Positions 15,077 to 23,819 of a stretch of 64,000 bases of DNA are shown here, in pieces (position 1 is the first letter of the stretch; every line of letters starts with the position of its first letter). The DNA lies in contig CM059432.1 in assembly GCA_030390025.1 (NCBI GenBank), positions 57,786,001 through 57,850,000 of the forward strand. Direction: 5' to 3'. Origin of the DNA: Squalus acanthias (lineage: Eukaryota). Under the pieces are notes generated by a model. That model saw only the letters and a program-made list of their open reading frames with translations. It ran no database searches and was not told the DNA's origin. Made by a program: the position numbers and the translations under genes.

Positions 15077-15885
15077 AACAACAATTTGCATTTTATATAG
15101 CATCTTTAGCATAGTAAAACGCCCCAAGGCACTTCACAGGAGCGTTATCAAACAAGATTTGACACCGAACTACATAAGGAGATATTAGGACAGATGACCA
15201 AAAACTTGGTCTAAGAGGTAGGATTTAAGGAGCATCTTAAAGGAGGAGAGAGAGGTAGAGTGGCAGAGAGGTTTAGGGAGGGAATTCCAGAGCTTTGGGC
15301 CTAGGCAGCTGAAGACACAGCTGCCAATGATTGAGCGACTAAAATCGGGAATGCTCAAGAGGCCAGAATTGGAGCAGCGCAGACATCTCGAAGGGTCGTA
15401 AGGCTGGAGGAGGTTACATAGATAGGGAGAGGCGAGACCATGGAGGGATTTGAAGATAAGGATGAGAATTTTAAAATTGAAGCATTGCTGGATCGGGTGC
15501 CAATATAGGTCAGCGAGCACAGGGGTGGTGAATGGGACTTGGTGTGAGTTAGGAAACGGGCAGCAGAGTTTTGGATGAGCTGAAGTTTATGGCCAGGAGA
15601 GAATTGGAATAGTCAAGTCTAGAGGTAACAAAGGCAGAGGTAATGAGGGTTTCAGCAGCAGATGAGCTGAGGCAGGGGCAGAGTCGGGCGATGTTATGGA
15701 GGTGGAAGTAGGCGGTCTTGGTGTTGGAACTGATATGTGGTCGGAAGCTCATCTTGGGGTCAAACACTACAACAGGGTTGTGAACGGTCTGGCAATTGCC
15801 AGGGAGAGGGCTGGAGACGGTGGCTAGGGAATGGAGTTTATGGTGGGGACCAAAGACACTGGCTTCGATCTTCCCAATATTTATT
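15077..15885 (-). mobile_element. L2-clade LINE 3' fragment
   Basis: ORFs with SRLDYSNSLL, LYWHPIQQ..FKIL, LWNSLP; (ttg)n tail. Confidence 0.85.
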
Positions 15886-16649
15886 TAGTTGGACTGATGC
15901 AATATATCCACTGACTCGCATGAGAAATATCATGGGAGATCTGCTAATTTTCTTTTAATCCAATTTTATACCAGTAAAAGTATCCCTTATTGGCAAATCA
16001 ATGGTTTGTATACCAAGAAACAGCGATTAGTCTCATATCACAGTTTCTTGCCTGCTGTCTCTTTTGTCCCACGGTTTTTTACTGATTGTTCTGAATGAGG
16101 GTAATTAATGTTGGAACGGAATAGTAATAAGAAACTGGACTAACTGCCATTACCATGGAACTAATAGTGAGAAACTACAGAATAACTAGACTACTCTTGT
16201 CAGTTTATAAATTCTAATGTTTTAAGTAGATCATTAACAGGAATTATTGTTGCATTATTAATTCTTGAGGGTTGGAGCAGCATTTATGCAGCAAATTAAA
16301 AAAAATATTCCAGTGGTTGCATGCATTTGACTGACTACATTTTAACACGAGGTGTTGCTTATAATCAGAGATGTGAATCATGCTTGCGAGAAATTATCTA
16401 TTTGTCTTGCAAAGTCTGCCATTATACCAGTGGCCTTATCTAAGGTTCTGAAGGGTTTACGGAAACAGTTTTCAACCATTTTCCCGATTGCACCGTCCCA
16501 CAGATTCATAGCCATTTCTCCTCTAGCCAAAAGATTAAACGGAAAAACTTTTCTCCCCCTACCTCGTCCATCTTAGAACATAGAACAGTACAGCACAGTA
16601 CAGGCCCTTCGGCCCTCAATGTTGTGCCGAGCATTGTCCGAAACCAAGA

Positions 16650-19565
16650 TCAAGCTATCCCACTCCCTATCATTCTGGTGTGCTCCATGTGCTTATCCAA
16701 TAACCGCTTGAAAGTTCCTAAAGTGTCTGACTCCACTATCACAGCAGGCAGTCCATTCCACACCCCAACCACTCTCTGAGTAAAGAATCTACCTCGGACA
16801 TCCCTTCTATATCTCCCCCCATGCACCTTATAGTTATGCCCCCTTGTAACAGCTACATCCACCCGAGGAAATAGTCTCTGAACATCCACTCTATCTATCC
16901 CCCTCATCATCTTATAAACCTCTATTAAGTCGCCTCTCGTCCTCCTCCGCTCTAAAGAGAAAAGCCCTAGCTCCCTCAATCTTTCCTCATAAGACCTCCC
17001 CCCCCCCCCCCCCAAACCAGGCAGCATCCTGGTAAATCTCCTTTGCACTCTTTCCAATGCTTCCACGTCCTTCCTATAGTGAGGTGACCAGTACTGCACA
17101 CAATATTCCAAATGTGGTCTCACCAAGGTCCTGTACAGTTGCAGCATAACCTCACGGTTCTTAAACTCAAACCCCTTGTTAATAAACGCTAACACACTAT
17201 AGGCCTTCTTTACTGCTCTATCTACTTGAGTGGCAACCTTCAGAGATCTGTGGATATGAACCCCCAGATCCCTCTGTTCCTCCACGTTCCTCAGAACCCT
17301 GCCGTTGACCCTGTAATCCTTATTCAAATTTGCCCTACCAAAATGAATCACCTCGCACTTATCAGGGTTAAATTCCATCTGCCATTTTTCGACCCAGCTC
17401 TGCATCCTATCAATGTCTCTTTGCAGCCTACAACAGCCCTCCAACTCATCCACTACTCCACCAATCTTGGTGTCATCAGCAAATTTACTGATCCACCCTT
17501 CAGTCCCCTCCTCCAAGTCATTGATAAAAATCACAAACAGCAGAGGACCCAGCACCGACCCCTGTGGCACACCGCTGGTAACTGGTCTCCAGTCTGAAAA
17601 TTTTCCATCCACCACCACCCTCTGCCTTCTATGAGATAGCCAGTTACTTATCCAATCGGCCAAATTTCCCTCTATCCCACAACTCCTTACTTTCTTCATG
17701 AGCCGACCATGGGGAACCTTATCAAACGCCTTACTAAAATCCATGTATACGACATCAACTGCTCTACCTTCATCTACACACTTAGTTACCTCCTCAAAGA
17801 ATTCAATCAAATTTGTTAGGCAAGACTTACCCTTCACGAATCCGTGTTGACTATCCCGGATTAAGTTGCATCTTTCCAAATGGTCATAAATCCTATCCCT
17901 CAGGACCTTTTCCATTATCTTACCAACCACCGAAGTAAGACTAACCGGCCTATGATTACCAGGGTCATTCCTATTTCCTTTCTTGAAGAGAGGAACAACA
18001 TTCGCCACTCTCCAGTCCTCTGGCACCATCCCCATGGACAGTGAGAACCCAAAGATCAAAGCCAAAGGCTCTGCAATCTCCACCCTTGCCTCCCAAAGAA
18101 TCCTAGGATATATCCCATCTGGCCCAGGGGACTTATCGACCCTCAGGTTCTTCAAAATTGCTAAAACATCTTCCCTCAGAACATCTACCTCCTCCAGCCT
18201 ATCCACCTTTTATCACACTCTCATCCTCAAGAACATGGCCCCTCTCCTCGGTGAACACTGACGAAAAGTATTCATTCATCACCTCTCCTATCTCTTCTGA
18301 CTCCATGCACAAGTTCCCACTACTGTCCTTGACCGGCCCTACCCTCACCCTGGTCATTCTTTTATTTCTCACATAAGAGTAAAAAGCCTTGGGGTTTTCC
18401 TTGATCCGACCCGCCAAGGACTTCTCATGCCCCCTCCTAGCTCTCCTAAGCTCTTTTTTTTAGCTCATTCCTTGCTACCTTGTACCCCTCAATCGACCCA
18501 ACTGAACCTTGTTTTCTCATCCTTACATACGCTTCCTTTTTCCTCTTGACTAGACGTTCAACCTCTTTTGTGAACCATGGTTCTCTCACTCGGCCATTTC
18601 CTCCCTGCCTGACAGGGACATACCTATCAAGGACACGCAGTAATTGCTCCATGAAAAAGCTCCACTTTTCGTTTGTGCCTTTCCCTGATAGTTTCTGTTC
18701 CCATCTTATGCTCCCTAATTCTTGCCTAATCGCATCATAATTACCCCTCCCCCAATTATAAACCCTGCCCTGCCGTATGGCCCTATCCCTCTCCATTGCA
18801 ATAGTGAAAGTCACTGAATTGTGGTCACTATCTCCAAAGTGCTCTCCCACATACAAATCAAACACTTGGCCCGGTTCATTACCCAGTACCAAATCCAATG
18901 TGGCCCCACCTCTTGTCGGCCTATCCACATATTGTGTCAGGAAACCCTCCTGCACACACTGCAAAAACTATCCCATCCGAACTGTTTGACATATAAAGGT
19001 TCCAATCAATATTTGGAAAGTTGAAGTCACCCATGACAACTACTCTGTGACCTCCACACCTATTCATAATCTGCTTTGCAATTTCTTCCTCCACATCTCT
19101 ATTACTATTTGGGGGCCTGTAGAAAACTCCTAACAACGTGACCGCTCCTTTCCTATTTCTAACTTCAGCCCATATTACCTCAGACGGCAGATCCCCCTCG
19201 AACTGCCTTTCTGCCGCTGTTAAACTATCCTTGATTAACAATGCTACTCCTCCACCTTTCTTACCACCTTCCCTACTCTTACTGAAACATCTATACCCCG
19301 GAACTTCCAACAACCATTCCTGTCCCTGTTCTAACCATGTCTCCGTAATGACCACCACATCGTAGTCCCAAGTACCAATCCACGCTCCAAGTTCTCCTAC
19401 CTTATTCCGGATGCTCCTTGCATTGAAGTAGACACACTTCAAGCCACCTTCCTGTCTGCCGGTACATTCCTGCGACCTTGATACCCTCCTCAGTACCTCC
19501 CTACACTCACCACTGGCTCCTGGACTACAGCCCTTTTTCCCATCCCCCTGACAAATTAGTTTAAA
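16650..19565 (-). pseudogene. CR1 ORF2 (APE endonuclease + reverse transcriptase) with three frameshifts as assembled
   Basis: NARSIRNK, ITETW, GDFNFP, SDHN (APE); KSPGPDG, QGSVLGP, KFADD (RT); split over ORFs 18921-19676, 18446-18964, 18199-18417, 16650-18206. Confidence 0.9.
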
Positions 19566-20479
19566 CCCCCCCGAAGAGCCGTAGCAAATTTCCCTCCCAG
19601 GATATTGGTGCCCCTCTGGTTCAGGTGCAAACCGTCCTGTTTGTACAGGTCCCACCTTCCCCAGAATGTGCTCCAATTATCCACATAACTGAAACCCTCC
19701 CCTCTACACCATCCCTGCAGCCACGTGTTTATCTGCACTCTCTCCCTGTTCCTCAACTCGCTAGCACGTGGCACCGGCAACAAACCAGAGATTACAACAT
19801 GGTTTGTACTGGCTCTCCGCTTCCAACCTAGCTCCCTAAATTCCTGTTTTAAATCCCCGTCCCTTCTCCTACCTATGTCGTTGGTACTGATGTGTACCAC
19901 GACTTGTGATTGTTCCCCCTCCCCCTTGAGGATTCTGAAAACACGGTCCGAGACGTCACGGACCCTGGCACCCGGGAGGCAACATACCATCCGTGAGTCT
20001 CTTTTGCTGCCACAGAACCTCCTATCTGTCCCTCTGACTATTGAGTCCCCAATAACTATTGCTCTCCTGCTCTTCCCCCCCCTTCCCTTCTGAGCCACAG
20101 GGACGGACTCAGCGCCGGAGATCCGGTCACCGTGGCTTACCACTGGTAGGTCGTCCCCCTCAACAGTATCCAAAGCGGTACACTTGTTACTGAGGGGAAC
20201 GACCACAGAGGATCCCTGCACTGACTGCTTCCTCCTAGCCCCTCTCACCGTCACCCATCTATCTTCATTCTTTGGAGTAACTACATCCCTGAAGCTTCTA
20301 TCTATGACCACCTCTGCCTCCCGAATGATCCGAAGTTCATCCAGCTCCAGTTCCCTAACGCGGTTTTCGAGGAGCTGGAGATGGGTGCACTTCCCACAGG
20401 TGTAATCAGCAGGGACACCGACGGCGTCCCTCACCTCAAACATTCTGCAGGAGGAACATTTCACTGCCTCCCCTGCCAT
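19556..20479 (-). CDS. CR1 ORF1p (307 aa): N-terminal Cys/His zinc-finger-like region, coiled coil, SGNH/GDSL esterase domain
   Basis: CSSC..CGKC, LENRVRELEL, IVIGDSIVR, CLPGA, VVHISTND, DGLHL. Confidence 0.9.
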   Translation of the reverse strand: MAGEAVKCSSCRMFEVRDAVGVPADYTCGKCTHLQLLENRVRELELDELRIIREAEVVIDRSFRDVVTPKNEDRWVTVRGARRKQSVQGSSVVVPLSNKCTALDTVEGDDLPVVSHGDRISGAESVPVAQKGRGGKSRRAIVIGDSIVRGTDRRFCGSKRDSRMVCCLPGARVRDVSDRVFRILKGEGEQSQVVVHISTNDIGRRRDGDLKQEFRELGWKRRASTNHVVISGLLPVPRASELRNRERVQINTWLQGWCRGEGFSYVDNWSTFWGRWDLYKQDGLHLNQRGTNILGGKFATALRGGLN

Positions 20480-20687
20480 CCCCTCCAGCTAACTTGCGGG
20501 TTAAACTAGAACAAGAAAGAGCTTACCTGATATTCACTCACCCCCTTTAGGTTAGAGGAGGTGGAAGGGTGGGGGACACTACAAGTGTAGTGTCTCGGGT
20601 TTAGGAACCGCCCAGCTTATATATAGGTAAAAATTATTCACTTACCCAGCAACCACTGCGACCCGCACTATAAAAGCACTCAACAGG

Positions 20688-20934
20688 TCCGCTGCTGCTC
20701 CCGCTGCTGCTCTGGGCCTCGCTGCCGCCTCGGGCTTACCTTTTGTACTCCGCTCTCCTCCGCTCCCTCACAAGTCCGCCGCCTCCGCCGCCGCGCTGCT
20801 CTGGGCCTCGCTGCCGCCTCGGGCTCACCTTTTGTACTCCGCTCCCTCACAGGGCCTCCGCCGCCGCGCTGCTCTGGGCCTCGCTGCCGCCTCGGGCTCA
20901 CCTTTTGTACTCCGCTCTCCTCCGCTCCTCACAT
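20688..20934 (-). repeat. Three tandem GC/CpG-rich monomers (about 70-100 bp) at the CR1 5' end
   Basis: gctgctctgggcctcgctgccgcctcgggctYaccttttgtactccgctc occurs three times. Confidence 0.9.
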
Positions 20935-21379
20935 CATCTTAGCTGATGTTTCAAAATTAAAGGAGAATTTTTCCACTTATCGTCCTGATAGGTTTAAAAC
21001 TGAATTTCTATTCCAGATGGTGGTCCTATGTTAACACATTTATTTAAACAGATTTAAGGATGTTGAAAAGACATTCAATAATCACATCCTTAATACTTGG
21101 ATATACTTTTCATTGCAGTTTTTTAATGCTGTGCATTTACTACAATTTAATAAAATATCAAAAAAGTCACAGTTGGTGATTCTACATTATGCAGGTGGCA
21201 GCCAGTGCGATAAATATAGACCGACGACAGTAATTTACAGCTAAATTGATTGTTATAATCAGAACCTATTCTCTTTGTAATTAAAATTTCTGGTCTCTTA
21301 ACAAAGATAATCAGTATCCTGTCAGTTAAAGTGAATAAACTCAATCAACCCCAGTTTAATATAAAAACATTTTTTTTAA

Positions 21380-22155: not shown

Positions 22156-22882
22156 AACAGAAAACGCTGGAAAAACTCAGCAGGCCAGGCAACATCCGTG
22201 GAGAGAGAAACCGAGTTAACGTTTCAGGTCGAAACCCTTCGTCGGAACTGAGAAAAGAGCAGGAAATTAAACAGATAAAAATTCAAGGGGGAGGCTGGGG
22301 GGAGGAATAAAAGAACAAAAGGGGTGGTCTATGGTAAGTAGAGACATTAAGAGATGCTCAAGGCAAGACGAGATGGTAATGGGACAGGTTAAGAAACAAA
22401 AGGTGAGGTGTGAAATGCTGGCAGAATGAGAGACAGCTGCCGTAGGGGGAGCGAGAGAAAAAAAAGGAAAAAGGCACGGACCAAAAGGGTAGATAAAATG
22501 TGTATATATATGTGGGAGGGGCCGGGGTTATGATCTGAAATTGTTGAACTCTATATTGAGTCCGGAAGGCTGTAAAGTGCCTAAACGAAAGATGAGGTGC
22601 TGTTCCTCGAGCTTACGCTGAGCTTCCGTGGAACAATGCAAGAGGCCGAGGACGGTGAGGTCTGAGTGGGCGCGGAGGGGTGAATTAAAATGACAAGCGA
22701 CCGGAAGTTCGGGGTCACCCTTACGGACTGAACGGAGGTGTTCCGCAAAGCGGTCACCCAATCTGCGTTTGGTCTCCCCAATGTAGAGGAGACCACATCG
22801 TGACAGCGAATACAGTATACTAGATTGCAAGAAGTACAAGTAAATCGCTGTTTCACCTGGAAGGGGTGTTTGGGGCCCTGGA
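22156..22882 (-). mobile_element. Penelope-like element 3' fragment (GIY-YIG endonuclease C-terminus + 3' UTR with hammerhead motif)
   Basis: NLVYCIRC and CGLLYIGETKRRLGDRFAEH..VACHF..EQHLIFRLGTLQPSGLN across a frameshift. Confidence 0.88.
22213..22250 (-). ncRNA. Minimal type I hammerhead-ribozyme-like motif (core CCGACGA instead of CUGANGA)
   Basis: Minus strand: AGUU-CCGACGA-A-GGGU-UUCG-ACCU-GAA-ACGU-U-AACU. Confidence 0.6.
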
Positions 22883-23819
22883 GAGCTTGGTCTAAAAATT
22901 AGCTGACATATTTGTGAGCAACTGGATCCGTTTTTAATTGGGGTGAAGTTCTACACCGTTCACCCTCCAGTACTTCACCCAAGTGGTCATTATTCAAGTG
23001 TGAGCTGTGAAAGTGAGCATCAGCATGCTGCTCAATCGCAGGGGCATTACAGTCCTGTCCTCTTCCAAGATCCACACCTGTACTTCCAACAGGGGCTGTT
23101 GGATAACAGCTATGATCAGGGGTCCAGCAATTCCCCACTACCGCCCCCCGCCAACTTCTCTGTTTTCCACCTTCCTAATACAGTTGTGTTGAGGCCATTT
23201 GTAACTCCCCACCATTGTCACTGCTGAGATCAGATAACTCGGCAAAGACTGGGAATCAAACCTGGACCCTTCCTAGGCTTCATGGCTCAGCTATTTACTA
23301 AGTAAACTCACTGAGCCATTAGGTGGAACCATTGTGCCAGTTTCGTTCCTCTAATTTTCACTGCTCCTCTCCTGAAGGCTGTGCCTCATGCTGGGGTATG
23401 GTTCCCTGAATTTCTGACAGCGCTGTATGTTAACCAATTGCCCATTTTTCATGTCTGTGCCAGTACCAGCAGACCTTTTTACCGTGGGGGGGGGGCGGTG
23501 GGGTGGTCATAACATCTGAACCCTACCCTGTTCATATCCAACCTGCACTTTATAGCAGGAGTCATTAAAAGTGATCAGTGGTGGCGACCATGACTTGTAT
23601 TTTTCTTCCTTCCCTCATCAAGGGTTACTGAGTCCGGTTGTGCCCAGTTGTTACCTGAACGATATCAGCTAACTAAGCAGACTAGAGATAGATTCTGGGC
23701 CCTTTCTAAATTTTACAGCTCAGTACCACACCACATGTTGCCCTTACTGCCTGAACTATTGGCAGAGATTGTATTTTAAAGTTTTTTGAATTTTTGTGCT
23801 TATTAAGACAGGATGTCCG

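Follow-up and report, generated by a model that had tools for sequence, protein, structure and literature searches.

The DNA considered here, referred to below as the window, is a stretch of 64,000 nucleotides (nt) of Squalus acanthias (NCBI GenBank assembly GCA_030390025.1, contig CM059432.1, positions 57,786,001 to 57,850,000 of the forward strand). On its minus strand lies a full-length copy of a CR1 long interspersed nuclear element (LINE) of about 4.36 kb (16577..20934), as defined by its open reading frames (ORFs), its Pfam domains and the ends read from the sequence. ORF1 (19556..20479, minus strand) starts at the ATG at 20479, encodes 307 amino acids including an SGNH esterase domain (19610..20056, minus strand; PF13472, E 1.4e-10), and finishes in Leu-Asn-stop. 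The APE endonuclease domain of ORF2 (18921..19430, minus strand; PF03372, E 2.5e-17) also matches L1 endonuclease structures; the frame of this copy breaks near the domain end, and the remaining ORF2 is spread over three frames in the ORF list (16650..18967, minus strand), with a reverse transcriptase at about 17978-17259 on the same strand (PF00078, E 3.8e-36). Our concern is the junction between the two ORFs, which we propose is probably the site of a programmed -1 ribosomal frameshift.

The last letters of ORF1, read on the minus strand, are GGG GGT TTA AAC TAA. A preliminary description of this DNA had placed an in-phase T TTA AAC directly before the ORF1 stop, and the letters bear this out, with TTTAAAC at 19565-19559 and TAA at 19558-19556. 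The heptamer T_TTA_AAC (19559..19565) stands in the X_XXY_YYZ phase of ORF1 and, judged from sequence and conservation, is the predicted -1 slip site; immediately 3' of it come the stop (19556..19558), a spacer of 7 nt whose sequence varies between lineages while its length is fixed (19549..19555), and the G-run GGGGG-AT-GGG (19539..19548), which is conserved in position and is a candidate stimulator. The G-tracts reported earlier about 10 nt downstream are as described: GGGGG begins 10 nt after the heptamer (19548-19544) and is followed by GGG at 19541-19539 and GGG at 19533-19531. A second X_XXY_YYZ word, G_GGT_TTA (19562..19568), overlaps the heptamer one codon upstream, but it is present in 8 of the 17 lineages described below and is not general. 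The G at 19568, 10 nt before the stop, is invariant in 17/17 lineages though the encoded residue varies; it is the last base of the second codon ahead of Leu and completes G_GGT_TTA in the eight lineages. TTTAAAC occurs once in the coding region of the element, whereas the word G5-N2-G3 occurs 10 times in its G-rich coding strand, and what is conserved is the position of that word. Given Gly-Leu-Asn and the codon use of ORF1 (T at the third position of Gly 0.22; TTA for 40 of 340 Leu; AAC for 60 of 123 Asn), the chance of meeting the heptamer in one copy is p about 0.013, and a single copy is therefore little proof; the weight lies on conservation across lineages.

The ORF2 frame can be followed through this site. 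From the heptamer a linker of 45 codons, free of Met and open in the -1 frame (19431..19565), leads into the APE domain, and the same frame is open from 19676 to 18924 with the PF03372 match inside it, which upholds the earlier claim of an open passage into the endonuclease. It had also been stated that no ORF2-frame ATG occurs until well inside that domain, and in the window copy the first Met of the frame is indeed codon 166 (near 19067), 121 codons past the APE start motif and beyond the ETW and YRPP motifs, which align with the L1 endonuclease. The ATG at 19543-19541 is in frame with ORF1 instead of ORF2 and opens 17 codons only. The family to which the window copy belongs behaves in the same way: in 24 of 30 copies the ORF2 frame has its first Met 121 codons into APE, and in none of the 29 copies that are open does a Met of this frame precede APE. 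In this family the -1 frame is also open for 37 codons upstream of the heptamer, again without ATG, while in most lineages it is closed 1-6 codons upstream, with no ATG between.

Genome-wide, TTTAAAC-TAR-N7-GGGGG was matched 29,779 times, compared to 20 times for its reverse as a control; when G_GGA_AAC takes the place of the heptamer, the motif shows no enrichment in the shark genome (16 matches, control 130). The junction is identical in the 30 best copies of the window-element family, which shows recent descent only, as this family is young. We therefore place more emphasis on the ORF1 ends of all loci collected, which were located by protein profile without use of the motif. There were 141 such ends, 120 of which fall exactly on a stop, and TTTAAAC precedes that stop in 108, with the other 12 carrying variants of the heptamer in which one or two letters are changed. 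TTTAAACTAR lies within 14 nt of 123 of the 141, and an evenly spaced 600 kb sample of the genome contained the TTTAAAC junction at 8 of 9 ORF1 ends. Among 140 anchored junctions the stop is TAA in 102, TAG in 33 and TGA in 1. Thirty metagenome loci contributed the junction in 10 cases, the others stopping short of the ORF1 end or being unusable. In one shark family (L107-L119) a G-run of variable length lies just upstream of the heptamer and alters the ORF1 phase in many decayed copies.

Sorting the junctions by their linker gave 20 groups, and after three with unrelated or deleted DNA downstream had been dropped, 17 lineages remained. T at -7 is found in 16 of these, TTA in 16, AAC in 17 and a TAA or TAG stop in 17 (TAG in nine), and the lineage lacking T at -7 reads G_TTA_AAC; G_UU(A) is the equine arteritis virus variant of the slippery word according to the passages concerned in Atkins (2016, PMC5009743). 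The four deepest lineages, namely the window-element family, a second shark family and loci L061 and L062, share a third-position identity of 0.10-0.38 at shared four-fold codons, which is near saturation. In the silent-site comparison, which took 10 lineages (two lineages had no usable representative), Leu and Asn are written TTA and AAC in 10 of 10, and seven other invariant residues have mixed codons. The heptamer is thus kept beyond what the protein alone would demand. Both the heptamer and the -1 offset are conserved across lineages; the lack of either in a consensus had been listed at the outset as speaking against the idea.

The offset itself is seen in 74 of the 94 copies in which an APE motif was found, over five large lineages, with APE in the -1 frame; in 18 of the remaining 20 the linker is interrupted by stops, which is what decayed copies should show. 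The frame from heptamer to APE is open in at least one copy of 13 of the 17 lineages, through a linker of 33-70 codons and variable sequence, and no open heptamer-to-APE frame was found in the other four lineages, which are represented by single copies. One copy is open in -1 for 968 codons, up to the natural end of ORF2. In example copies of lineages 2, 3 and 7, the 43-62 codons upstream of a Met that precedes APE are open in -1 and the other frames are stopped.

Similar evidence comes from the proteins. Among 100 matches listed for ORF1, including sharks, rays, Latimeria and Xenopus, 55 homologs are complete at the family end position and 51 of them end in Leu-Asn; in a second set, from 120 matches listed and including birds, turtles, lizards and a snake, this holds for 83 of 86 full-ended proteins. 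An ORF1 homolog of the sea cucumber Apostichopus japonicus ends in Cys-Leu-Asn. Locus L062, whose ORF1 is 60% identical to the Apostichopus japonicus protein, reads G_TTA_AAC TAG in its DNA, followed by a G-run, and its ORF2 stays open in the -1 frame over 492 codons. When 1.84 billion proteins were searched by profile, 8,166 relatives were obtained, and from the best 150 of these, together with the earlier matches, we assembled a deep set of 110 proteins with a full esterase core. In this set 61 ORF1s end in a dipeptide that a slippery word can encode (Leu-Asn 46, Gly-Asn 11, Lys-Asn 3, Lys-Lys 1), compared to a rate of 5.2% for such dipeptides inside the esterase domain. On a quick tree, the Gly-Asn and Lys-Asn ends fall mostly in a separate clade of 26 rows, a further clade has Lys-Asn at the equivalent place although the protein continues, and an L2-like clade, so labelled by its likeness to 4c1b, has a slippery-codable end in 0 of 10 ORF1s. 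This may be consistent with the heptamer having been swapped in deep lineages for other slippery words that encode Gly-Asn or Lys-Asn. The terminal Asn is fixed relative to the stop while the tail preceding it spans 3 to 19 residues. The ORF1 family profile matches the ZfL2-1 esterase 4c1b (E 4.7e-40), and the active ZfL2-1 esterase ends at I302, the catalytic His+20, according to the portion of PMC3905857 that describes it; since the Leu-Asn position corresponds to His+22/23, the esterase fold has no need of Leu-Asn. In four deep esterase ORF1s (P0301, P0327, P0357 and P0362) Phe-Phe or Phe-Leu stands one or two residues from the C-terminus, and a U-rich slippery word could encode these residues. 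Two CR1 ORF1 proteins (P0007 and P0175) are deposited under the names Pseudomonas aeruginosa and Klebsiella pneumoniae; they come from short contigs and are probably animal DNA.

We hypothesise that a programmed -1 frameshift at U_UUA_AAC yields an ORF1-ORF2 fusion, and place the probability of this at roughly 0.85. A gag-pol-like fusion had been suggested in the preliminary description, and the anatomy of the element, the conservation of the junction, the frame and the missing AUG argue for it. A minority of ribosomes would slip back by one base at U_UUA_AAC, the Leu-tRNA on UUA and the Asn-tRNA on AAC re-pairing with UUU and AAA, and would then read ORF2. After the slip the chain would contain Leu-Asn and then Leu-Ile-Cys, giving a fusion of about 1,270 amino acids (307 + 966). 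Most ribosomes would terminate and release free ORF1p, so that the ratio of ORF1p to enzyme would be high. With less support, and as a guess at the role of the G-run, we suggest that a pause imposed by the G-run 10 nt downstream and slow termination at the adjacent stop may together replace a pseudoknot. The fusion would bring endonuclease and reverse transcriptase into ORF1p assemblies in the way Gag-Pol does, although no element-coded protease is seen.

Several observations weigh against a frameshift, the first of which is that no usual 3' stimulator was found: local folding of the 60-100 nt past the stop is no better than that of shuffled sequences, with z-scores of 0.13 to 1.09 for the window copy and -1.17 to 1.48 over the 17 lineages, pseudoknots not being modelled. 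Distant pairing of the G-run gives best partners that differ among lineages, with none shared in 20 long copies; the CCCCC in the YRPP codons, a possible partner, is not kept in lineages 2, 5, 6, 7, 12 and 16; and an Rfam search at the junction returned 0 matches. We also considered a G-quadruplex, but there are three tracts in 50 nt, the first at 10 nt, and none is predicted in the window-element family; one is predicted in 5 of the 17 lineages, and none of these goes beyond a z-score of -1.55. In U_UUA_AAC reporters with a quadruplex, as far as the relevant part of PMC3919603 goes, a spacing of 6-8 nt was best and up to 10 nt was tested, and the G-run start at 10 nt exceeds this optimum. Natural quadruplex stimulators of frameshifting were not known in 2016, to judge by the section of PMC5009743 concerned. 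The role of a folded stimulator that had been implied for the G-tracts thus finds no support here, although the first G-run is conserved in place: counted from the first base of the stop, positions +10 and +11 are G in 17/17 lineages. Moreover, the Gly codons of the G-run in the ORF2 frame are GGG in 13 of 15 cases, compared to 66 of 229 further along ORF2, and this excess points to a constraint at the RNA level.

Further points on the same side concern sampling and breadth. The shark lineages are related, with third-position identity of up to 0.88, and most copies are top search hits; 49 of the 110 deep ORF1s end in other dipeptides; and the Gly-Asn and Lys-Asn ends are known from protein only, on a quick tree, contig searches for DNA of these lineages having given no match or weak hits in bacterial records only. 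The remaining points concern start codons. An ORF2-frame AUG lies 2 nt past the stop in four of eight bird-type loci (L065, L066, L068 and L069), a Met is found somewhere before APE in lineages 2, 3, 5, 6, 7, 10, 12 and 14 and in some copies of lineage 1, and a missing AUG does not in itself exclude reinitiation, because L1, according to the pertinent lines of PMC1965478, can do without the AUG of its ORF2.

These start codons bear on the strongest alternative, in which ribosomes remain on the RNA after stopping at TAA or TAG and begin anew with ORF2 at an AUG or non-AUG codon close by, in the manner of SART1, L1 or caliciviruses. In that case ORF2p would be a separate protein, and the conserved word and the G-run would be a restart signal. 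Such a route is described for SART1 and L1, in which, according to parts of PMC5972666 and PMC1965478, it is sometimes insensitive to the start codon. UGGGA, the TURBS core word sought 40-90 nt ahead of the stop, lies at -41 and -96 in the window-element family. However, UGGGA is at varying positions and is absent in 3 of the 17 lineages, and a CUG start overlapping the stop would require the TGA that is seen at a single one of the 140 junctions. Nor is there, across lineages, an AUG or near-cognate start at a shared place upstream of APE: an ORF2-frame AUG within 25 nt of the ORF1 stop is absent in the window-element family and in 15 of the 17 lineages, the pre-APE Met residues of different lineages are at unrelated places, and the other four bird-type loci read GTG, GTG, TCG and TGG where the AUG would be. 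A conserved ATG ahead of the APE domain, which had been named beforehand as an observation that would count against a fusion, was thus not found across lineages. Reinitiation also leaves unexplained the X_XXY_YYZ word in exact phase and the open linker upstream of the AUG. We consider it unlikely as the general route; its case is possibly strongest for the bird-type copies with a nearby AUG, in which both routes to ORF2 might work.

A signal that does not act in translation is less probable still. The junction could, for instance, be a branch point and 3' splice site (CTAA...AG|G), through which an exon further upstream would be spliced to ORF2, or it could serve retrotransposition as a binding site. 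In the window-element family CTAA followed by AG|G does resemble a branch point and acceptor, and splice-like words can be seen by eye in the 5' untranslated region (UTR). Against this, only 7 nt separate CTAA from AG, a pyrimidine tract is absent, 9 of the 17 lineages have TAG as their stop and 4 of 17 lack the A at +9, and neither splicing nor binding would need a codon phase shared with both ORFs. Contigs from two runs guessed to be RNA (X1 and X5) pass over the junction unspliced, which is weak evidence as they may be DNA or omit rare forms; none of the sequencing runs recorded as RNA contained the junction stretch, and the contigs compared, from 4 of 24 runs listed, carry no information about expression. 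Finally, the view that there is no signal, Leu-Asn being kept for the function of ORF1p and its codons shared by descent, is strongly disfavoured: terminal residues can be functional and the shark lineages are related, but both codons and the third base ahead of them are fixed despite silent-site saturation in the four deepest lineages, the terminal Asn tracks the stop and not the fold, and the ZfL2-1 esterase is active without Leu-Asn.

The rest of the element is as would be expected of a canonical-type CR1 LINE, with a type IVB-like ORF1, an ORF2 with APE and reverse transcriptase, a short-repeat tail and a target-site duplication, and its sequence can be assigned to this type. The label CR1 is based on the ORF1 and ORF2 domains and the tail, the tree that was built being of the ORF1 esterase only and by a quick method. 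The target-site duplication, read from the sequence, has its 5' copy at 20935..20942 (CTAAGATG on the minus strand) and its 3' copy at 16569..16576 (CTAAGATG). A 5' UTR of G+C-rich repeated units occupies 20480..20934, and the 3' tail (16574..16587) has two TGTTCTA units and no poly(A), all on the minus strand and again from a reading of the sequence. By eye, the minus strand of the 5' UTR between 20650 and 20500 also contains, near 20625, a TATA-like word and, near 20645 and 20528, two words that resemble splice donors; a pyrimidine tract leads to AG near 20506, directly upstream of the ORF1 ATG. The N-terminal part of ORF1 has a CX2CX16CX2C motif and a leucine-rich stretch, noted by eye from the translation, and this zinc-finger and leucine-zipper part gave no profile match in the domain search. 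The closest named homolog of ORF1 is from Mustelus (74%). No protease domain was found in the element. Elsewhere in the window, and from translation only, a minus-strand frame at 22528-22950 resembles a GIY-YIG endonuclease fragment of a Penelope-type element, and broken minus-strand frames at 15185-15884 resemble the 3' part of an L2-type LINE ORF2.

The canonical vertebrate CR1 with an esterase ORF1 corresponds to CR1 subgroup 7 with a type IVB ORF1 in the relevant part of PMC4120745, and to canonical CR1 in that of PMC13343379; like the window element it has an ORF1 with zinc finger, leucine zipper and esterase, an ORF2 with APE and reverse transcriptase, and a short-repeat 3' tail. Like the -1 shifts of coronaviruses, arteriviruses, retroviruses and Ty3-gypsy elements, the CR1 site has an in-phase heptamer of the shiftiest class and a downstream ORF in -1, and as in gag-pol-type systems a structural or chaperone protein comes first and the polymerase second. 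It differs from these in that no pseudoknot or hairpin was found, the G-run is at 10 nt, the stop is directly after the heptamer, and the element is a non-LTR (long terminal repeat) retrotransposon in which no protease domain was found. L1 and SART1 share with CR1 a bicistronic LINE RNA and low-level ORF2, but ORF2 of L1 has an AUG and follows a 63-nt spacer, and SART1 has an overlapping stop-start, according to passages in PMC3894237, PMC3708506 and PMC5972666, whereas in CR1 the ORFs overlap in -1 and the window-element family has no AUG before APE. In the G-quadruplex reporters, as partly described in PMC3919603, U_UUA_AAC is likewise followed by 3' G-tracts, but there are four G3 tracts 5-8 nt away, against the three more distant tracts of the CR1 junction. 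Other non-LTR elements share with CR1 an unusual mode of decoding or ORFs that overlap. The frameshift of HeT-A, as treated in part of PMC5009743, is within gag and the element has no reverse transcriptase. The 2A peptides in CR1 and L2 ORF2 are also unlike the junction, as they split one ORF. A frameshift proposal has reportedly been made for Dictyostelium TRE5-A. The passages on TRE5-A in PMC5633606 refer only to 'overlapping ORFs'.

In the full-text literature searched we found no description of a ribosomal frameshift between CR1 ORF1 and ORF2, the papers of 1997 on chicken and turtle CR1, like the Repbase and Dfam notes, lying outside this scope, so that an earlier remark is possible. The word 'frameshift' is absent from the main text of PMC4120745 and PMC13343379 and from one supplement of the latter, and the passages concerned do not treat ORF2 translation. 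In the parts of the sources concerned, the recoding survey PMC5009743 lacks 'CR1', its non-LTR passages being on HeT-A and TART; the frameshift passages of PMC11835228 concern retroviruses; and PMC4255032 and PMC1925062 have mutational frameshifts only. The sections of two reviews on this subject call LINE ORF2 translation unclear, without the word 'frameshift' (PMC3894237, PMC3708506).

On the sequence evidence, the signal is real and deeply conserved, and it appears to be a known kind of recoding in variant form. The use of a short unfolded G-run and an adjacent stop as stimulator is a candidate novelty, in that it was not found in the literature searched. More tentatively, and with somewhat less than even odds, we propose that esterase-ORF1 CR1 LINEs from the echinoderm type to the bird type make an uncleaved fusion by a -1 shift, that U_UUA_AAC, G_GGA_AAC and A_AAA_AAC were exchanged in deep lineages, and that the vertebrate slip works through the unfolded G-run and the adjacent stop. 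In most vertebrate species the dominant retrotransposons belong to the CR1 group, as stated in a passage of PMC13343379, and the ORF1p and ORF2p of LINEs are currently treated as separate proteins. If a gag-pol-like fusion is made, the picture of the CR1 particle would change, as the enzyme would be tethered to the esterase-bearing ORF1p in a ratio set by the rate of slipping. ORF2 starts set at the first Met would then be wrong, and assays that express ORF2 only would miss its natural form. If the shift does occur without a folded RNA, a new type of stimulator would be added to those of frameshifting.

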